NCBI GenBank assembly: GCA_965230955.1 | Contig: OZ246404.1 | Location: 500,995 to 564,994, forward strand | DNA length: 64,000 bases | Direction of reading: 5' to 3' | DNA from: an uncultured Candidatus Saccharibacteria bacterium | Lineage (GTDB): Bacteria > Patescibacteriota > CALEFQ01 | Part shown: in pieces, positions 34,185 through 48,997 of the stretch | How positions within the stretch are numbered: the first letter of the stretch is position 1 | Layout of the letters: each line of letters opens with the position of its first letter | Program-made: the position numbers and the translations under genes | The notes under the pieces: generated by a model | The model's database searches: none | Told to the model about the DNA's origin: nothing | Seen by the model: only the letters and a program-made list of their open reading frames with translations

Positions 34185-34225
34185 TTCCGTAGAGTGATAG
34201 GAACTTCGGCTGAAAGGAGGGAAAT

Positions 34226-34810
34226 GTGGAAAATAATTCAATGTCAGTAAATGATCTGTTGCTGGCGACATTGGGATCAATCATCCATAGGTTAAAAGGG
34301 CAATGCGTAACCCTGGGCGAACCGATACTGAAAGAAGGAATATTCATAAGTCCATTGCCGGAAACTCCGGCAGATGGCTTTCTTCATCAGAAACTCTGGG
34401 TTGTGGATATCGGTTCCAAATGCTATGTCTTTTCCCTGGGCGATGCCACCGGTTCCAATACCTCTCAAATTTTCACTTGCGAATTGATCGTCATCACCGA
34501 CGCCCGTCGAGCCACCAATCAGGAAATGATCAGTTTGGCAATCAGGAATTCGCGTGGAGGATTCCGTTGCACCATCTTGCTTGGCTATAACAACGGAGGG
34601 TTACTGATTCCCAAGGACGGTTACTATCATCAGGTTGCGAACGACCATCACTTATCGGATTTTCCGGAAGAATACTTGGAAAGAATAAAAGATCAGGCTG
34701 CAGAAAATGAAAGCCCGGGACGTCCCCAGCCGTGTCGCTTATTATACCGTCCGCCGGCTGTCCGACATCTGATGCAGAATCTCCTTGACATTTTTCAAAA
34801 TGCACCATGA
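34226..34810 (+). CDS. hypothetical protein (194 aa), no recognisable domain, GTG start
   Basis: SD AAAGGAGGG 4 nt upstream of GTG 34226 (ATG at 34241 is too far from the SD). Own promoter upstream and own terminator downstream. Confidence 0.5.
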   Translation: MENNSMSVNDLLLATLGSIIHRLKGQCVTLGEPILKEGIFISPLPETPADGFLHQKLWVVDIGSKCYVFSLGDATGSNTSQIFTCELIVITDARRATNQEMISLAIRNSRGGFRCTILLGYNNGGLLIPKDGYYHQVANDHHLSDFPEEYLERIKDQAAENESPGRPQPCRLLYRPPAVRHLMQNLLDIFQNAP

Positions 34811-34883: not shown

Positions 34884-34920
34884 ATGAAGTCACATCGAAT
34901 TCATCGAAAGGAGGACAAAG

Positions 34921-35652
34921 ATGAATCACACTAATGCCAAACTGGCAGCGTCTTCGATTGCCGAATACCTGCTTGGCCGACAAGGTCAAGAACTCTTAGC
35001 CAAATTGCGCCAACGCAGTCTGGTAATTCCATTGGCACAACTTGGGATTATTACCGAGCATGAACACAACTGGAAAAGGATTGCCGCCCTTGATTGTACT
35101 GGTCAGATTCTGATCCTGACCGTCCGGCAAGATGTCCTGTTGGACACGGTTGTCGAAATGGAAGCGGTGGCCGACCAGCCCAAAATGACCATCTTTGATG
35201 TTGTCAGTAGTATCTGGCGACAAAGCAAAACCGAACCGGATCTTCTGACCAGGTTAGAAATTGCGGCCACTAAAGTTTTGAAGATGCATGATCTGCCAGA
35301 TCTGTCTGAAGCGAAAATCAACTATATACGTAAATTAGAACAATATTTCGCCCAGATCCGGATCAGCGACATGTCCCGAGACCGGATAAAAAGATTTGGC
35401 ATTGTTGCTCGAGTGGCGAATCTGGTGCCCGAAGGAGCGACTGAAAGAGTTGCCAAAGCCTGTTTGGTCGTATCGGATACCAATTGGTCGCTGCTGGCAG
35501 TTGAAGTTTTCCAGCAATACCAGTTAAAATCTGATCCGCCGACCGGACCGTTTTGCCAAGTTCCTGGTCTATTCCTGGTGCCAGGCACAGCTGACCGGCT
35601 GAAAAAATACCATATTGTCGAGCATTGCGATCCACTGACTTTGTCATGGTAA
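34921..35652 (+). CDS. hypothetical protein (243 aa), no recognisable domain
   Basis: SD AAAGGAGG 6 nt upstream of ATG; preceded by a TTGACA-17-GATAAT promoter and followed by a strong terminator. Confidence 0.6.
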   Translation: MNHTNAKLAASSIAEYLLGRQGQELLAKLRQRSLVIPLAQLGIITEHEHNWKRIAALDCTGQILILTVRQDVLLDTVVEMEAVADQPKMTIFDVVSSIWRQSKTEPDLLTRLEIAATKVLKMHDLPDLSEAKINYIRKLEQYFAQIRISDMSRDRIKRFGIVARVANLVPEGATERVAKACLVVSDTNWSLLAVEVFQQYQLKSDPPTGPFCQVPGLFLVPGTADRLKKYHIVEHCDPLTLSW

Positions 35653-36318: not shown

Positions 36319-37285
36319 CGTTCTTGATCACTTGTTTTAATTCGCTGGTATCAAGTGTAGCCGTACCGACTTTTCCCACCACCACTCCCGCCGCATAATT
36401 CGCAATCTCGGCCGCGTCGAGGAGGGAAGCGCCGCTAACTAAGGAGAGCGCCAGAGTTGATACGACGGTATCGCCGGCACCGCTGACATCAAAAATCTCC
36501 CGAGCTTTTGTCTTTATAACTACCGGCTTCCGGCCGATTTCAAAAATAGCGACGCCGTCTTCGCCCTGGGTCAGGACGATATTACTTTCCAGTTCTTCTT
36601 GAAGCTGCCGGCCGGCGTCCAAGACGGATTCGGCTCCCGACATCTCCCTGGCTTCTTTTTTGTTCGGCTTGATTACCGTCGCCCCGCGATAATAATCTTT
36701 ATGAGACGGCTTAGGATCGACGACCACCGGGATTTTTCTCTGTGCCGCCAGTGAAATTATTTGCTGGGCGATCTTGAGGGAAATCATTCCCTTGGCATAA
36801 TCGGAAATAATCACCGCTCCGACCTGCGGAATGTTTTTTTTGATCTGCGTCAGAATCTTTTTTTCCAGGAAATCGCCAATCGGTTTTATTTCTTCTTCGT
36901 CGATGCGCAAAAGCTGATGCTGAGGAATCGCCATGATACGATTTTTCCTGATCGTGGGGCGTTTGGAATCGGGTAATAAATAGCCGGCTTTTATCTTTTT
37001 ATCCTTCAAAACTTTTTTGAAAATTTCGCCGTTACGATCAGCGCCTATCAGTCCCATCAGCAGGGCTTGTCCGCCCAAAGCATTGATATTGTTGGCAACA
37101 TTGGCCGCCCCGCCGGCGGTATACGTTTCGCGTTGTACTTGAACTACCGGGACCGGCGCTTCAGGCGAAATACGCTCGACTTTACCCCAAACCGCGCTAT
37201 CCAGCATAACATCACCCACCACCAAAATCTTCTTGCCTCTAAACTTGTCGATATTTTTTAGTAGTTTGGTGTTTTTGTGGGACAT
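36308..37285 (-). CDS. hldA: D-glycero-beta-D-manno-heptose-7-phosphate kinase (PfkB family, HldE kinase-domain-like, stand-alone)
   Basis: PfkB signature DVSGAGDTVV; GKKILVVGDVMLD; 325 aa = kinase domain only, no adenylyltransferase domain. Confidence 0.8.
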   Translation of the reverse strand: MSHKNTKLLKNIDKFRGKKILVVGDVMLDSAVWGKVERISPEAPVPVVQVQRETYTAGGAANVANNINALGGQALLMGLIGADRNGEIFKKVLKDKKIKAGYLLPDSKRPTIRKNRIMAIPQHQLLRIDEEEIKPIGDFLEKKILTQIKKNIPQVGAVIISDYAKGMISLKIAQQIISLAAQRKIPVVVDPKPSHKDYYRGATVIKPNKKEAREMSGAESVLDAGRQLQEELESNIVLTQGEDGVAIFEIGRKPVVIKTKAREIFDVSGAGDTVVSTLALSLVSGASLLDAAEIANYAAGVVVGKVGTATLDTSELKQVIKNDGK

Positions 37286-37288
37286 ATT

Positions 37289-37903
37289 TTACCTTTTGCC
37301 TTTAGCCTTTTGCTTTTTGGCGATTTTTTCCTCTGCCAACTCGCAAATAATATGCAAAATCGTCTCGTGGCACTCCTGGATTCTGGGAGTATCTTTTGAC
37401 GGAGCCTTCAGAGCTAAATCCACCATTTTTATTACATCAACGCTTTTATCGCTGAATAAACCGATAATTTTCATCTTTTTACGTCGCGCTTCTTGAAGAG
37501 CATAAGCAATATTGGCGGAATGCCCGTGTTCGCTCAGCTCCACATCACTGGTGGTAATGGCAATGGCAATATCTCCCGCTTGCCCAAAGGCCGAAATCCA
37601 TTTCTGAAAAGTCAGATGATAGCCGTCATCATTGGCGATCGCCGTCAGGACCGAAGTGTCTGCATGCAAAGCCAGTGCCGGCAGGGGAGTGCGAGCAATC
37701 TTGAACTTGTTCACAAATTCGCCGGCAAAATGCTGGGCATCCGCCGCACTGCCACCATTGCCGAAGATCATTATTTTTTTACCCTGGTGCATGGCAACGA
37801 CAATCATGTCAACAGCTTTAACCACGCTTTTACTCAAAACATCAGCCGCCTTAACTTTGACCGCCGCACTTTCCAGAAATATTTTCTTGATTTGTTCTTT
37901 CAT
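37289..37903 (-). CDS. gmhA: phosphoheptose (sedoheptulose-7-phosphate) isomerase, SIS domain
   Basis: IFGNGGSAADAQHFAGEFVNKF and SIS-domain layout, 204 aa. Confidence 0.9.
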   Translation of the reverse strand: MKEQIKKIFLESAAVKVKAADVLSKSVVKAVDMIVVAMHQGKKIMIFGNGGSAADAQHFAGEFVNKFKIARTPLPALALHADTSVLTAIANDDGYHLTFQKWISAFGQAGDIAIAITTSDVELSEHGHSANIAYALQEARRKKMKIIGLFSDKSVDVIKMVDLALKAPSKDTPRIQECHETILHIICELAEEKIAKKQKAKGKR

Positions 37904-37933
37904 GTCGATTTTATTAATTTTGCGTTTTAGGTT

Positions 37934-38434
37934 TTATTGTCGACTTGGATTGTCGGCGGACGAGACGCCGGAAACGGCGGCTCTTTTAATTTTTCTCCGC
38001 CGGACTAGATAAAAAATTATTGCCGCGACCGCCAGAAACGGCGCTACGTACAACGGATCCTCCGGCCAAAACAGCCCCCAACCGGTTCCGTAAAAAGAAA
38101 ACGGGAAGAGCCAGGGATAGGAGAATTGACTGAGATGGCGCTGAAAGACATCCAGTAACAAATGCAGGCCAATTCCGTAGAGCATCCATAACCAGGCGGA
38201 TTTCCTGATTTCCGGCGCGAAAAAGAACACCAGCAACAAGGTCAATAATACCAAACCCGCCGGACTATGCAATGCCGAAAAAAACCAATAAGCGCTGTGA
38301 TTGTTTGGGATAAAAAGGAAAAACAGTCGGGTCACATCCGGCAGAACGGCGCCGGCAAATAAAAAGAAAACCCACCGATATTTTCTATCGGCAAAAAATG
38401 AAGCAAAAGCGACATGGGTAATAAGATCGGGCAT
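37934..38434 (-). CDS. membrane-bound metal-dependent hydrolase-like protein (YdjM/DUF457-like)
   Basis: MPDLITHVAFA N-terminus with histidines in short hydrophobic helices. 166 aa. Confidence 0.5.
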   Translation of the reverse strand: MPDLITHVAFASFFADRKYRWVFFLFAGAVLPDVTRLFFLFIPNNHSAYWFFSALHSPAGLVLLTLLLVFFFAPEIRKSAWLWMLYGIGLHLLLDVFQRHLSQFSYPWLFPFSFYGTGWGLFWPEDPLYVAPFLAVAAIIFYLVRRRKIKRAAVSGVSSADNPSRQ

Positions 38435-38481
38435 ATAATAATTAGAAATTCAAAATTAAAAATGCAGAATTAATCAAATAA

Positions 38482-38967
38482 TTAGGCATTCTGAATTTTG
38501 CATTTTGCATTATTTGGGTCCTTCTCAAAAAACTCAAGTTTCCGCCAATTAAATCGATACTTTTTGAACAACAAATATAGCACGAAGAAAACTGCCGGTA
38601 GGGAAAAATAATATTTTAACGGCCGAGCGGGATGCAAGTGCCACGATGAAGCTTCCACCAAATCCGACTCGATGACCACACCCGACAAACTAAGGTTCTG
38701 CCCGATCCGAGCCGACGGCATTTCTTTAAAGCTGGCGGTAAATTCATGTCCTTCGGTTTTTAAAACCATGGTGGCGGATTCAGGATCTATACTCATGATC
38801 TCGGTATATTGAGTGTCAATCGGGGCGGGGAGACCTCTTTGGCCGGTCAACTTTTCCGCTGGCGGAATATCGATTTTCGGCCCGGCGGAGGCAGCATACC
38901 AACATAAACCAAAAACAATCCCGCCCAATGCAATTATTTTCAGCAGGCGGGATTTATCGGAAAACAT
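38482..38967 (-). CDS. hypothetical bitopic membrane protein (N-terminal and C-terminal TM helices flanking about 100 aa ecto-domain)
   Basis: Hydrophobic segments IIALGGIVFGLCWYAA and LPAVFFVLYLLF. 1-nt start/stop overlap (CATTAA) with GT2 upstream. Confidence 0.5.
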   Translation of the reverse strand: MFSDKSRLLKIIALGGIVFGLCWYAASAGPKIDIPPAEKLTGQRGLPAPIDTQYTEIMSIDPESATMVLKTEGHEFTASFKEMPSARIGQNLSLSGVVIESDLVEASSWHLHPARPLKYYFSLPAVFFVLYLLFKKYRFNWRKLEFFEKDPNNAKCKIQNA

Positions 38968-39923
38968 TAATTTTTCTCTTTATTTTTGCCCAAGGATTCG
39001 CGCTTGACCCAGTAGAGGACTTCTTCGATGATCTTTCGATTCCAACCGACAGCGGAAGCAATCAGTCCCATGATGCCGATTTGAAATCCCAGGATCATCA
39101 TGACCGCGGCTAAAATCAGAGACTGAATATGACCGGATCCGTCACCGGTAAAATAAAAATACAGAAAACGAATACCCAAAGCGGCGCCGACAGCAAAAAT
39201 AATTACGCCGATCGAAAGAAAGACTTTGAGCGGTTTGTAAAGCAGTGTCATGCGGAAAATCACGGTCAGCGAACGCCGAATATGACTGGAAATACTTTTG
39301 ATGAGACGCGATTTACGTTTTACCGGCCGAGCCTTAATCGGAATTTCAACTATTCGCAGGCGCAAATCGGCTAATTGGAAAAAAGTTTCGTGGGTATAAG
39401 TGTGGTGTGACAGAATATTGATCCGCATAGCCGCTTCACGCGTGTAAGCGCGAAAACCGGTCGACGCATCCAGTTTCGGGACATCAGCCAATTTACAAAC
39501 TACGTAACTGCCGACCATATTGCCGTATTTATTGGCAAATGGCATTTTTTCCAGCTTCTCGATTTCTCGGCTACCGATAACAACATCCGCCATCTGATCA
39601 AGCAGGGGACGGATCAGATCGCCGATTTTGGATTGATTGTAATGGTTATCGCCATCAGTATTAACAACGATATCGGCGCCCAGTCGCAAGCATTCCTCGA
39701 TACCTTGTTTAAAAGTCTGGGCCAGGCCGCGATTAATTTTGCGATCGATCACAAAATCAGCGCCGGCATTTTTTGAGCGTTCCACCGTGCGATCTTTTGA
39801 GCCATCGCTGATAACCAGAACTTTAACCTCGGTAATTCCGGGAATATTTCGGGGAATTTCACGGATCACGTCGGCGATATTTTGTTCCTCGTTATAAGCG
39901 GGGATTTGGACGAATAGCTTCAT
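38967..39923 (-). CDS. GT2 polyprenyl-phosphate sugar synthase (GtrB/ArnC/DPM1-like) with C-terminal TM helices
   Basis: IPAYNEEQNI...ISDGSKDRT...DGDNHY; C-terminal helices. Conserved 25-nt leader motif 6 nt upstream of ATG. Confidence 0.8.
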   Translation of the reverse strand: MKLFVQIPAYNEEQNIADVIREIPRNIPGITEVKVLVISDGSKDRTVERSKNAGADFVIDRKINRGLAQTFKQGIEECLRLGADIVVNTDGDNHYNQSKIGDLIRPLLDQMADVVIGSREIEKLEKMPFANKYGNMVGSYVVCKLADVPKLDASTGFRAYTREAAMRINILSHHTYTHETFFQLADLRLRIVEIPIKARPVKRKSRLIKSISSHIRRSLTVIFRMTLLYKPLKVFLSIGVIIFAVGAALGIRFLYFYFTGDGSGHIQSLILAAVMMILGFQIGIMGLIASAVGWNRKIIEEVLYWVKRESLGKNKEKN

Positions 39924-39929
39924 ATGATG

Positions 39930-39954
39930 GTCTTTAGTCTATAGTCTTTGGTCT
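39930..39954 (-). promoter_or_regulatory. conserved 25-nt leader motif AGACCAAAGACTA-nnn-ACTAAAGAC, 6 nt upstream of GT2 start (copy A, minus strand)
   Basis: Minus strand reads ggctatAGACCAAAGACTAtagACTAAAGACcatcatATG. An upstream complementary segment (plus 39969-39995, ggctaaagacaaaagaccaaagg) can pair with the motif to form a leader hairpin. Confidence 0.5.
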
Positions 39955-40067
39955 ATAGCCGTAAAATTGAGGGCTAAAGACAAAAGACCAAAGGCTAACG
40001 ACTTTTTTGATCAGCTATAACATACCCGAAAAGACAGAAAGAATCAAGCCGATTTAATAAATAAACG

Positions 40068-40096
40068 CCCCGAGCTGAGATAAATCCAGCTCGGGG
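40068..40096 (-). terminator. Rho-independent terminator for the minus-strand gene 40103-40501
   Basis: ccccgagctg / cagctcgggg perfect 10-bp stem, 9-nt loop, followed on the minus strand by CGTTTATTTATT; 7 nt after the stop. Confidence 0.7.
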
Positions 40097-40565: not shown

Positions 40566-42047
40566 TCAATTTCCAGACTGAACACGATCGGGTTTTTTCG
40601 TCCGAACAAACAATAGTTTAAACTTTGACCATTCACTGCGTTTTAGAAATCCCAAGGAATAAAGGACGACCAGGAATAAGGCCAATAACCCACACTTAAT
40701 CAAAACGGAAAGCCAAATATTTCCCACGCCGATAAATAAACTCAAGCTGTAAATCAACGCTGCCAGTCCGAAAATCGCCCACATTTTTTTCCACTCGTAC
40801 TTGATTGGGTAAAATTTCTGCGCCATCAGGTAGGTCAAGACGCAGACAAAAATATAGCAAGCGAAAGTCGTGACGGCCGCACCAAGCATGCCATAAACAG
40901 GCACGATAAAATAATTGAGCACCAAATTAGCAATGGCCGGAACGACAATCAGCCACGGATAGTATTTTGTATTATTGGTGATATGAATTCCCGGCGCCAG
41001 GACAAAATGCATGCCGTAAAAGACATAAGAAATCGCCACCAACATTACCACTTGCGCCGCGCCCCAATAAGCCGGATCGGCGATCAGCTTGACGCCTTCC
41101 GGCGCCAGCACCCCGAGAATCAACGCGACAAAAGTTCCGATCAAGACAAAATAAGTTAAAACTTTGCTATATATTTGCTGGGCGTCATTGCGCTTGGATA
41201 CATCAAAATACATAGTCGGCCAAGCCAACTGGAAAGGAGCCACAATCAAAACATCGACGATCATACCGATTTTGTAGCCCAGGGCGTAAATTCCCACTTC
41301 GGTCGGATCGCGAAAGATTTCGATGAAATATCGATCGGATAAATCCATTACCCAAACCGCAATGGAAGCCGGAATAATCGCCATGCCAAAGCCCCACAGT
41401 TTCCTCAAGTAAAAGCGAGAAAAACTCCAACTGGCGGCCTTGATGACGTCCGGAATCAGCGAAAGAGCGACTAAAGCAAAAGAAATTAAATTGGCCCAGA
41501 GAATCCCGGCGGCGTCGAGCTTGAGCCCCATGATAAAATAAAAGTTCAGGCCCAGTACGATACCGAAACGAAGCAAGAAAAGAACGGTATATTTTTTGGA
41601 ACGTTCTTCCACCCGGAGAAGGGCGAAAGCCATATTCATGAAAATGGTGAAGAACGTGGTGGAAAGCAAAATTTGAAACAGAGAAGCGAATTGGGCATCA
41701 CCCAGCAACCAGCGGCTCAATTGCGGCGCGATCAAGAGCAAGACCGCGAGGATCGCAAAAGCAATCGGGATGACAAAAATAAACATCGTGCCCACCAGTT
41801 TTTTTCGTTCTTCCGTGTTATGTGCATCCCGGAAATATGTTTTCATCAAGGCCGAGCTGAAACCAAAGGTGATCAGCATCAGGATGATCGAGCCAAAAGT
41901 ATTGACGATCTCCAGGCGGCCATAACTGGCCGGCACCAAGTAATTGGTATAAAGGGGGATCAATAAAAAAGCTACGGCGCTTTGCGCGACGGAGCCGATA
42001 GCATAAATAGCGGAATGCTTAAAGAGGCGTTTAAATTGGGAGAACAT
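40566..42047 (-). CDS. Wzx-type oligosaccharide flippase (MOP superfamily), second copy
   Basis: KHSAIYAIGSVAQSAVAFLLIPLYTNYLVPASYG N-terminus; about 14 TM; 493 aa. Confidence 0.8.
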   Translation of the reverse strand: MFSQFKRLFKHSAIYAIGSVAQSAVAFLLIPLYTNYLVPASYGRLEIVNTFGSIILMLITFGFSSALMKTYFRDAHNTEERKKLVGTMFIFVIPIAFAILAVLLLIAPQLSRWLLGDAQFASLFQILLSTTFFTIFMNMAFALLRVEERSKKYTVLFLLRFGIVLGLNFYFIMGLKLDAAGILWANLISFALVALSLIPDVIKAASWSFSRFYLRKLWGFGMAIIPASIAVWVMDLSDRYFIEIFRDPTEVGIYALGYKIGMIVDVLIVAPFQLAWPTMYFDVSKRNDAQQIYSKVLTYFVLIGTFVALILGVLAPEGVKLIADPAYWGAAQVVMLVAISYVFYGMHFVLAPGIHITNNTKYYPWLIVVPAIANLVLNYFIVPVYGMLGAAVTTFACYIFVCVLTYLMAQKFYPIKYEWKKMWAIFGLAALIYSLSLFIGVGNIWLSVLIKCGLLALFLVVLYSLGFLKRSEWSKFKLLFVRTKKPDRVQSGN

Positions 42048-42075
42048 GAATATTTAAAAGCAAAAGCTAAAAATT

Positions 42076-42148
42076 TAAAAGAAATTTAAAGGCAAAAATT
42101 TAAATATTGTTAACAATGCTTTAAATTTTGAGCTTTAAATTTCTTTTA
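42076..42148. repeat. 73-bp nested palindrome in a divergent promoter region (16-bp perfect inverted repeat arms around a 12-bp perfect palindrome)
   Basis: taaaagaaatttaaag (42076-42091) and ctttaaatttctttta (42133-42148) are exact reverse complements. Concentric palindrome attgttaacaat at 42106-42117. Intervening arms are near-complementary. AT-rich. Confidence 0.7.
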
Positions 42149-48072: not shown

Positions 48073-48127
48073 TTTCGCATTTTCGTCCTAGGTCTCACGG
48101 TATTAAATTTGCGATCTAGCCGGCCTC

Positions 48128-48152
48128 AGACCAAAGACTAAAAACTAAAGAC
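48128..48152 (+). promoter_or_regulatory. conserved 25-nt leader motif AGACCAAAGACTA-nnn-ACTAAAGAC, 5 nt upstream of GT2 start (copy B)
   Basis: cAGACCAAAGACTAaaaACTAAAGACtctttATG. 22 of 22 non-spacer positions identical to copy A, although the two downstream GT2 proteins are unrelated in sequence. Confidence 0.5.
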
Positions 48153-48157
48153 TCTTT

Positions 48158-48997
48158 ATGGATCTTTCTCTCGTCATCGTCCACTACAAAGCTCCGGATC
48201 TGCTGGAGCAATGTATAAAATCAATTACCGCCAAATATCCTGATTTGCGCGGCCATTTTGTGATTGTGGATAATTCTCCGAACCAAAAGACATCCAAGCA
48301 AATAAAAGCCACTTTCCCACACGAGCGCTATATCCCATCGCGCCAAAATGTCGGATTCGCTAAGGCGATCAACTGGGGAATATACAATTCTCAATCAAAA
48401 TATATCCTGATACTAAACCAGGACATTATCATGCGAGATGACGCCGTTCAGAAAATGTACAACTACCTGGAAGCTCACGCCGATGCCGCTTTGTGCGCGC
48501 CGAAACTGATTTATACCGACGGATCCGTCCAGCCCAGCTGCTGCCGTTTCTATACGCCGGGAGTAATTCTTTATCGCCGCACCTGGTTCGGGAAATTGCC
48601 CTTTGCCAAAAAATCAACCGCGTCTTTTACCATGGCCGATTATGACCATATGTCAACCAAAGAAGTTGATTGGGTGACCGGCGCCGCCATGATGATCAGG
48701 CGTTCCGCCATTGAAAAAGTCGGGCCGATGGACGAAAGATTTTTCTTCTACTTTGAAGATGTAGATTGGTGCCGACGTTTTTGGGAAAACGGCTGGCGGG
48801 TTATTTACCTGCCGGAGGCTCAAATGACCCACTACCACAGCCGCGAGAGCGCGGAAAAAACCGGATTTTGGTCGCTCACCAAAAAAATGACTCGCATTCA
48901 TATCAAAAGTGGTGTAAAATATTTCATGAAGTACCGCAAACATAAAACAGCCCCGCGGGAAGTTTTTAATAAAACCAAACTGAAAAACCATGCCTGA
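48158..48997 (+). CDS. GT2 family glycosyltransferase
   Basis: LSLVIVHYKAPDLL...VIVDNSPN...LNQDI. Conserved 25-nt leader motif 5 nt upstream of ATG. Confidence 0.8.
   Translation: MDLSLVIVHYKAPDLLEQCIKSITAKYPDLRGHFVIVDNSPNQKTSKQIKATFPHERYIPSRQNVGFAKAINWGIYNSQSKYILILNQDIIMRDDAVQKMYNYLEAHADAALCAPKLIYTDGSVQPSCCRFYTPGVILYRRTWFGKLPFAKKSTASFTMADYDHMSTKEVDWVTGAAMMIRRSAIEKVGPMDERFFFYFEDVDWCRRFWENGWRVIYLPEAQMTHYHSRESAEKTGFWSLTKKMTRIHIKSGVKYFMKYRKHKTAPREVFNKTKLKNHA

Follow-up and report, generated by a model that had tools for sequence, protein, structure and literature searches.

Two copies of a 25-nt motif standing immediately upstream of two family 2 glycosyltransferase (GT2) genes, GT2-A and GT2-B, on opposite strands of a 64,000-nt stretch of DNA from an uncultured Candidatus Saccharibacteria bacterium (contig OZ246404.1, positions 500,995 to 564,994; hereafter the window, whose own coordinates we use throughout) are short tandem arrays of a heptanucleotide repeat, (YAAAGAC)n. 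Judged by its sequence and predicted fold, the element belongs to a known class of heptamer-repeat leaders, represented here in a hairpin form and in a genome of the Patescibacteria (candidate phyla radiation, CPR). We propose, with a probability of about 0.5, that it would act on the downstream cistron through structural control of initiation independent of a Shine-Dalgarno (SD) sequence, or through mRNA processing or stability. An original prediction made from the window had instead described a conserved operator co-regulating two GT2 steps, and this is not sustained, as the motif is a repeat, is widespread in unrelated organisms, recurs as the same hairpin in front of groEL, and is represented in a close relative (L243) by arrays that match neither each other nor the window.

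Results

The shared motif is an array of heptanucleotides

Exact matches to AGACCAAAGACTAnnnACTAAAGAC / AGACCAAAGACTANNNACTAAAGAC occur twice in the 64-kb window, as copy A on the minus strand and copy B on the plus strand (Table 1), with no further copy there even when 3 mismatches are tolerated and no match in 100 dinucleotide-preserving shuffles of the window. The two copies agree at all 22 specified positions and differ in the central 3 nt (TAG in copy A vs AAA in copy B), and their 3' ends lie 6 nt before the GT2-A ATG at 39923(-) and 5 nt before the GT2-B ATG at 48158(+), so that the placement, the 22-position identity and the closeness to two GT2 starts are all as first described. DNA likeness between the two loci ends at the motif boundaries, and the encoded proteins show no BLASTP similarity (E=1.2) yet both match Pfam PF00535; the downstream coding sequences are indeed unrelated at this level. 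These results support reading the motif as non-coding sequence in cis and not as the product of a duplicated gene. As a sequence feature the shared motif is genuine and statistically well founded, but the original prediction over-interpreted it.

What had been presented as a 25-nt unit is a genuine sequence but not an indivisible one, being built of tandem heptamers: it reads AGACCAA-AGACTAn-AnACTAA-AGAC, i.e. 3.5 units of (YAAAGAC)n. A search with AGACYAAAGAC returns overlapping matches stepped by 7 nt within both copies, as well as matches on the opposite strand immediately upstream of copy A, and Tandem Repeats Finder detects 3.7-4.1 copies at period 7. We scanned periods 4-14, counting stretches in which 16 or more of 21 positions were self-matches, and found six arrays at period 7 against 0.15 expected, the only enriched period apart from its double (three arrays at period 14), with 0-1 arrays at each of periods 4-6 and 8-13. 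All six period-7 arrays lie within the 37.3-48.2 kb glycan cluster, each touching a start codon. The same cluster holds all top six of the 56 window leaders when these are ranked by lag-7 autocorrelation, and the other 51 leaders, with the known arrays removed, carry no general period-7 signal (z -1.06). Rank 6 in lag-7 self-similarity falls to the leader of the Wzx flippase gene 40566-42047, 42048-42090(-), ttagcttttgcttttaaatattc, which could, by its sequence, be the decayed remains of such an array.

Over the ~80 kb examined, the (YAAAGAC) unit itself is represented by two sense arrays and one inverted array, all of them within 37-48 kb. The units found at the other starts of the cluster differ from it (Table 1), and the array in front of the hldE-kinase gene is, over 37289-37325(-), an insertion relative to two more distant relatives, L244 and L247, that lengthens GmhA with a Lys-rich tail (...AKKQKAKGKR*). 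Here a repeat of the non-coding type has been taken into the gmhA coding sequence. Read from the sequence, T-containing heptamer units hold stop codons in all six frames and can therefore persist only outside genes.

Copy A is the start-proximal arm of a predicted leader hairpin

Copy A and the inverted array upstream of it are predicted to fold into an imperfect hairpin of 26 bp with periodic 1x1 mismatches, the stem of which stops 6 nt before the AUG (-30.7 kcal/mol, z -5.66, with 0 of 200 shuffles equally stable). The 5' arm, GUCGUUAGCCUUUGGUCUUUUGUCUUUAGCC, consists of GUCUUUR-type heptamers and the 3' arm is copy A, resulting in the architecture 5'-(GUCUUUR)n-loop-(YAAAGAC)n-1 to 7 nt-AUG. 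Folding of both leaders, as the original prediction had proposed, therefore bears out the sequestration of copy A by an upstream complement, but gives no significant structure for leader B, a result weighed below. Within the same operon, the two arrays of the ydjM leader form a weaker hairpin (-19.1 kcal/mol, z -2.65).

Two other identities for hairpin A were considered and rejected. It is not an intrinsic terminator or attenuator, as the stem is not followed by a U-tract and the bona fide terminator upstream of it is a separate structure, nor is it a curated RNA family (riboswitch, leader or small RNA, sRNA), as Rfam 15 returns no match at gathering thresholds over the window. Below threshold, leader A (window 39909-40024) is matched by MIR2630 (E 0.028) and mir-9 (E 0.56); these miRNA-precursor matches are explained by the length and imperfect pairing of the hairpin together with a UCUUUGGU-like stretch and do not indicate homology.

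The arrays lie in an SD-poor genome

A 4-nt SD core precedes 8 of the 56 window genes, against 4.9 expected by chance, and a strong SD precedes 2; at positions -12 to -3 upstream of the window's gene starts, base A makes up 45-55%. The GT2-A and GT2-B leaders contain none of GGAG, GAGG and AGGA, in agreement with the earlier statement that neither gene has a canonical SD, but with a core at only 8 of 56 genes this is the rule in the window and not a peculiarity of the two. The motif does sit in the leader where an SD would be, as had been noted. We rejected the motif as a canonical SD/anti-SD site in its own right, since it has no GGAGG-like core when judged against canonical CCUCC, the 3' end of the host 16S rRNA lying outside the window. 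The two strong SDs are confined to AAGGAGGG (34200-34225) and AAGGAGGA (34895-34920), both on the plus strand, in front of two adjacent genes that have no Pfam match (34226-34810 and 34921-35652).

GT2-A is the first gene of an operon (GT2-A / 161-aa ORF / ydjM / gmhA / hldE-kinase / gmhB; ORF, open reading frame) and, because the gene upstream of it ends in an intrinsic terminator, opens a new transcription unit. Between the terminator and the hairpin lies a promoter-like TTGATT-17 nt-TATGTT element that scores 8/12, under the 9/12 threshold of a consensus scan, and is kept in L243 while the surrounding bases vary. Transcription from this element would place hairpin A in the 5' untranslated region (UTR). 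More broadly, the first ~50 kb of the window are an almost uninterrupted series of glycan-biosynthesis genes, including many GT2, GT4 and GT9 enzymes, GT-C/PMT-like proteins of 838-1073 aa, three Wzx-like flippases and Wzy, along with B12-binding radical-SAM enzymes, methyltransferases and the heptose-pathway genes gmhA, hldE and gmhB. This region makes up a very large share of a genome of ~1 Mb.

Table 1. Coordinates of the heptamer arrays, the leader hairpin and associated features in the window
Feature	Position	Strand	Remarks
Motif copy A	39930-39954	-	AGACCAA AGACTAT AGACTAA AGAC; 3' (start-proximal) arm of leader hairpin
Motif copy B	48128-48152	+	AGACCAA AGACTAA AAACTAA AGAC; unstructured in the window genome
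GT2-A	38967-39923	-	resembles polyprenyl-phosphate sugar synthase; match below curated cut-off
GT2-B	48158-48997	+	rhamnosyltransferase-like GT2; match below curated cut-off
Leader-A hairpin	39930-40002	-	5' arm 40002-39972, loop 39971-39961, 3' arm 39960-39930
GT2-A leader, two inverted arrays	39926-40004	-	period scan
GT2-B leader array	48120-48156	+	period scan
Leader-B 5'-arm remnant, degenerate	48084-48095	+	CGTCCTAGGTCT; intact (GTCTTTA)x4 at the same position in L041
Array before hldE-kinase ATG	37282-37325	-	GCAAAAG GCTAAAG GCAAAAG GTAAAAT
gmhA leader, weaker heptad periodicity	37904-37935	-	AAAACCT AAAACGC AAAATTA ATAAAAT
ydjM leader, two inverted arrays	38435-38516	-	AATGCAA-type and ATTTTNA-type; hairpin ending at the ydjM start codon
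Promoter-like TTGATT-17 nt-TATGTT	40019-40047	-	read from sequence
Intrinsic terminator of the gene upstream of GT2-A	40068-40096	-	GT2-A opens a new transcription unit downstream of it

Arrays are kept, remodelled and eroded among close relatives

Orthologous loci for the GT2-A leader (site A) were gathered through homologues of the GT2-A protein. The locus is carried by five metagenome assemblies, in one case on a contig of more than 1 Mb; one of the assemblies, a second assembly of the locus (L001, from SRR10083294), is identical to the window at both site A and the GT2-B leader (site B). In L241 and L242 (93% protein identity) site A reads ATAGACC ATAGACT ATAGACC ATAGACC, followed by 7 nt and ATG, and in L243 (91%) it reads CCATAGG CCATAGA CTATAGA CCTTTGA with an inverted array upstream, the leader folding at -35.7 kcal/mol (z -3.8). 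The number of units at site A is ~4 in the window, in L241/L242 and in L243. The contigs of L241 and L242, from samples SRR22387926 and SRR22387985, begin at the same base inside the site-A array (L241:1-38 and L242:1-38), and this shared start suggests a branch of the assembly graph, arising either from inverted or repeated k-mers or from population heterogeneity.

At site B, L243 carries AAAGACC AATGATC AAAGACC, then CT and ATG. Its arrays at sites A and B agree with each other at ~12 of 22 positions and both also differ from those of the window, so the identity between the two copies is not conserved. A contig of the metagenome-assembled genome (MAG) CALEFQ01 holds the same locus at ~70% nucleotide identity over 5.1 kb (L041; blastn of the window against the fetched loci), and here the GT2-B leader reads (GTCTTTA)x4-GTC, a 17-nt loop, CGACCAA GGACTAA TGACCAA AGACC, T and ATG, with a predicted fold of -35.0 kcal/mol (z -5.4). 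Leader B aligns across three lineages through its start-proximal YAAAGAC units, the coding DNA being ~70% identical and the rest of the spacer poorly conserved. On the strength of this alignment, copy B of the window has evidently lost its 5' arm by erosion and kept the start-proximal one.

Arrays of this kind are also found in front of genes other than those for glycosyltransferases. On a second contig of MAG CALEFQ01 (L004; CALEFQ010000083.1, 4191-4262), the groES-groEL spacer is filled by the same type of hairpin, GTCTTTA GTCTTTG GTCTTTA GTCT, loop ctgg, CCAAAGA CCAAAGA CTAATAG CTAAAGA C, then TAATTCT and ATG. The hairpin has a predicted energy of -26.8 kcal/mol (z -5.0) and stops 7 nt short of the groEL ATG, and the 548-aa protein encoded downstream matches Cpn60. 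Such a strong stem in front of an essential and highly expressed gene would be unexpected if the element were purely repressive. The ydjM start of L242 is preceded by yet another heptamer array (ATTTTAC GCTTTAC GTTTTAC), and all of the ~10 arrays checked in this Patescibacteria clade end 0-7 nt from an ATG. Compared in this way, the arrays of the clade are acquired, reshaped and worn down within short evolutionary distances and have no fixed link to GT2 genes. Conservation at orthologous loci, which the original prediction had proposed to examine, thus holds in so far as close relatives keep arrays at both sites, but not for the units, which are altered, nor for site A at 80% identity or below, where the array is absent.

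The same repeats recur in many phyla

We scanned genomes (one per species) with a looser, very degenerate pattern, and metagenomes with the exact 22-nt pattern; the counts from both scans are lower bounds, not frequencies. The looser pattern matches at least 119 stretches in many phyla, all of them (AAAGACN)n arrays, the shortest with 3 units and the longest with more than 20, and the matches listed include Bacteroidota, Acidobacteriota (Pyrinomonadaceae), Fibrobacter, Omnitrophota, Planctomycetota, cyanobacteria, Vibrio and others. The exact 22-nt pattern is found in at least 120 unrelated metagenome stretches, with the exact 25-mer of copy B in three of the matches listed, and is therefore not an operator specific to GT2 genes.

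Among the matches listed, which comprise 254 non-redundant arrays, an ORF-opening ATG follows within 15 nt downstream in 30 cases on the sense strand vs 8 on the antisense strand, and ~15% of the arrays have an inverted array within 70 nt upstream. In these hairpin-type pairs, again among the matches listed, the GTCTTT arm comes first in 39 cases vs 10 of the opposite order, a count that is independent of the strand read. Arrays of other heptamers, CGACTAA, TGACCAA, GGACTAA, GGCAGTA and AATGGCT among them, frequently lie next to the (AAAGACN)n arrays (L002-L240). The TGACCAA-type units presumably correspond to the STRR2 unit TTGGTCA of the short tandemly repeated repetitive (STRR) sequences.

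Discussion

A candidate leader element for initiation without an SD

These data are compatible with a model where the state of the hairpin governs access to the start codon. When closed, the stem, 1-7 nt from the AUG and thus inside the 30S footprint, would leave ~30 nt of upstream sequence double-stranded and hinder loading, and when the hairpin is opened or removed, the A-rich, G-poor array would be exposed as an unstructured loading site. Opening could occur by RNase III-type cleavage of the long imperfect stem, by analogy with the 5'-UTR hairpin of the Haemophilus influenzae hmw genes, or by a single-strand RNA chaperone bound to the U-rich arm. A lone 3' arm such as copy B would supply an open A-rich leader. 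The arrays themselves would arise and change by 7-nt slippage or duplication, an origin that accounts for both the drift of units between relatives and the appearance of the same sequence in unrelated phyla.

Several results weigh against a role of this kind. Folding of leader B of the window yields nothing significant (z +0.2); the two leaders are therefore not equivalent, and copies A and B cannot share one mode of action. Orthologues L244 (80%), L247 (73%) and L248 (65%) have no site-A array and lack any period-7 repeat over 14-21 kb, which indicates that the site-A array is dispensable on that timescale, and no further arrays lie in the ~8 kb of flanking sequence beyond each end of the window. 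A joint fold of the window and L243 keeps the stem with 3 pairs changed on both sides, but this covariation is weak, as it comes from two sequences and the repetitive arms can be aligned in more than one register. In other phyla only ~12% of arrays among the matches listed abut a start codon, and hairpin-type arrays do so in 8 of 39 cases vs 22 of 205 for other arrays among those matches, a modest excess. Finally, in a viral-contig collection that includes eukaryotic giant viruses, (AAAGACC)3 occurs in 8 loci vs 11 and 17 for two composition-matched heptamers; with control heptamers about equally common, it is not exceptional in frequency, in keeping with a generic mutational origin.

Alternative explanations

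It is quite possible, at odds appreciably below even, that the arrays are neutral by-products of replication slippage or 7-nt duplication, tolerated solely in the short, non-coding spacers that a compact genome offers, with the hairpins produced by inverted duplication or template switching and neither these nor the closeness to starts having any function. Such an account sits well with the recurrence of the same arrays across hundreds of unrelated genomes and contexts (both scans), the similar abundance of the control heptamers in viral contigs, the drift of units between close relatives together with the absence of the site-A array at 80% identity or below, the lineage-specific insertion of the hldE-leader array, and the stop codons that restrict arrays of T-containing units to sequence outside genes. 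It fits less readily with the position of the arrays. Both copies stand at the extreme start end of their spacers (179 nt and 85 nt), for which we estimate a random chance of ~0.04 x 0.1, every clade array checked abuts an ATG, and the arrays are confined to one 11-kb part of the ~80 kb examined. Furthermore, the leader-B array has outlasted ~30% divergence of the coding DNA, unlike the spacer next to it, and the 30:8 sense bias among the matches listed extends the association to other phyla.

A contingency function, in which the number of heptamers would tune surface-glycan genes by phase variation as at hmw, seems improbable. The confinement of the arrays to a surface-glycan cluster and the precedent of a heptamer 5' UTR at hmw speak for it, and the breaking of the L241 and L242 contigs exactly at the array could reflect heterogeneity, but such breaks are equally explained by inverted or repeated k-mers. 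The window arrays comprise only 3-4 units, far from the length on which the hmw system depends, site A holds ~4 units in three lineages, and L001 is the same as the window at both sites.

A more specific form of the proposed opening step would involve a cold-shock protein (Csp). The microarray-derived binding consensus of Bacillus subtilis CspB is the heptamer 5'-GTCTTTG/T-3', in which position 3 is C and positions 2, 4 and 6 are T (PMC1904285), and the 5' arm of the hairpin, i.e. the complement of the motif (GUCUUUU, GUCUUUA, GGUCUUU), matches this consensus head-to-tail at a 7-nt pitch equal to the footprint of one Csp monomer. The likeness is one of sequence, and unlike a CspB site the start-proximal arm of the mRNA is the complement (AAAGACY). 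A translational switch gated by Csp, whose co-transcriptional coating of the U-rich arm would keep the stem open and expose the A-rich loading site, is mechanistically coherent but unsupported, and we regard it as a speculative and improbable lead. Csp might alternatively antagonise RNase III, by analogy with what has been proposed for the Staphylococcus aureus cspA mRNA. No csp gene was detected in the window by tblastn, and the negative outcome of the viral-contig frequency control lends no support to a sequence-specific binder such as Csp. As such arrays, (AAAGACN)n/(GTCTTTN)n, and the hairpins they form are spread over many phyla, the GTCTTT arm leading in 39 vs 10 of the matches listed, the switch, were it real, would be a widespread, convergently generated and repeat-encoded device. 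It would then also explain in functional terms why heptamer repeats have long been noted to be in excess in bacteria.

A dedicated operator, that is one protein or sRNA site or ribosome-loading sequence co-regulating GT2-A and GT2-B, is unlikely. The 22/22 identity at the same position before two starts of one glycan locus is what such an operator would show, and the 5' arm of leader A is predicted to pair in trans with copy B at -28.2 kcal/mol vs -13.3 +/- 3.5 for shuffles, although trans-pairing follows trivially from a shared repeat. Counting against it are the mismatch of the two L243 arrays with each other and with the window, the same hairpin before groEL and the other arrays before ydjM, gmhA and hldE, the commonness of the 22-nt pattern in unrelated organisms, the different structural contexts of copies A and B, and the lack of an Rfam family match.

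Units of repetitive extragenic palindromes (REP) and of their paired form, REPIN, are imperfect palindromes of 20-40 nt with a 5' GTAG, present in many copies in genomes that encode a REP-associated tyrosine transposase (RAYT). Despite the inverted orientation of the two copies, which flank the glycan block each just outside a start codon, and the superficial resemblance of the inverted doublet at site A to a REPIN, it is very unlikely that they are recombination sites flipping the 8.2-kb segment 39955-48127 and thereby swapping promoters and leaders of the GT2-A operon with those of the GT2-B operon, or that they form a REP/REPIN-like mobile element. Pfam matches or annotation, which cover the majority of ORFs in the window and its flanks, include no recombinase, transposase or RAYT family. 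The two copies have different central 3-nt segments, and the motif is a direct repeat and not a palindrome of the sort used by recombinases. L001 and L243 share one gene order, the two arrays of L243 mismatch, and the 25-mer lacks both an internal palindrome and an initial GTAG.

Implications

The heptamer-leader phenomenon is here extended to a reduced, SD-poor Patescibacteria genome, and with it comes a compact architecture in which two inverted heptamer arrays are predicted to form a hairpin ending at the AUG. In the comparison with relatives, the hldE leader exemplifies the birth of an array and the GT2-B leader its maintenance, while site A has been remodelled and the 5' arm of leader B has eroded. 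Should they function in initiation or mRNA processing as proposed above, such arrays would offer a simple and evolvable way to set the translation or mRNA processing of single cistrons without an SD. Annotators should note that a 25-mer shared exactly by two sites is no evidence for a dedicated regulon when it consists of tandem repeats. The clade constitutes a compact comparative entry to the question of why heptamer repeats sit on starts in SD-poor bacteria.

Comparison with known heptamer-repeat systems

To our knowledge, hmw is the only heptamer-leader case that has been dissected experimentally, the others having no accepted function. We found no relevant paper using the heptamer AAAGACC or any of its rotations. 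Heptamers are the most abundant class of long simple sequence repeats (SSR) according to Mrazek et al. 2007, as cited in PMC4679880, and the long simple sequence repeats (LSSR) of prokaryotes include intergenic heptanucleotide tandem repeats (PMC4692102). In Nostoc, contiguous heptamers near start codons or promoters affect reporter output (preprint, 10.1101/2022.06.06.494920). The cyanobacterial STRR/LSSR arrays are often much longer than those of the window, and their role is in some cases tied to DNA-level effects. We know of no description of STRR/LSSR arrays from Patescibacteria, nor of any arranged as inverted pairs next to AUGs.

At the level of the leader as a whole, the closest parallel is with the SD-independent, A-rich translation initiation regions described in Bacteroidia (PMC6847099), which the window genome resembles in being SD-poor and A-rich upstream of its starts. 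What is described there is the general composition of leaders, whereas the window has discrete tandem repeats and hairpins.

The hairpin form has its nearest counterpart in H. influenzae hmw1A, where (ATCTTTC)n is transcribed in the 5' UTR as the left arm of a long imperfect hairpin, cleavage of this hairpin by RNase III raises expression, and repeat number varies, sets the level of expression and drives phase variation. The hmw element lies upstream of a cell-surface gene and works in cis after transcription; it needs at least 11 units, and these pair with a G-rich, non-repeat right arm (PMC12721329). The window likewise has pyrimidine-rich heptamers as 5' arm, with a common TCTTT core (ATCTTTC vs GTCTTTR) and, for leader A, a putative place in the 5' UTR. 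Its arrays differ in having 3-4 units, in that both arms are arrays and the stem abuts the AUG, and in that no change of copy number is seen between lineages; no rnc gene was found in the sequence of the window organism examined.

The class also includes the TAACTGA repeats of Beggiatoaceae, cyanobacteria and Bacteroidetes, which occur in sets of 2-6, mostly a few nt upstream of starts (MacGregor 2015, PMC4679880). They overlap the expected ribosome-binding site in SD-poor leaders, stand before genes that share no functional theme and of which some are essential, and have had S1, Csp and CsrA put forward as their binders; the BOGUAY genome holds 169 sets of one heptamer, with almost no inverted sets (PMC4679880). 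The window arrays share with this class the tandem 7-nt units in forward orientation, the intergenic position 5-6 nt from an ATG and the rarity of SDs, and the groEL array of L004 parallels its essential targets. They depart from it in the sequence of the unit, in the use of several different units within one locality, and in the inverted arrays that are predicted to pair into hairpins at the start codon.

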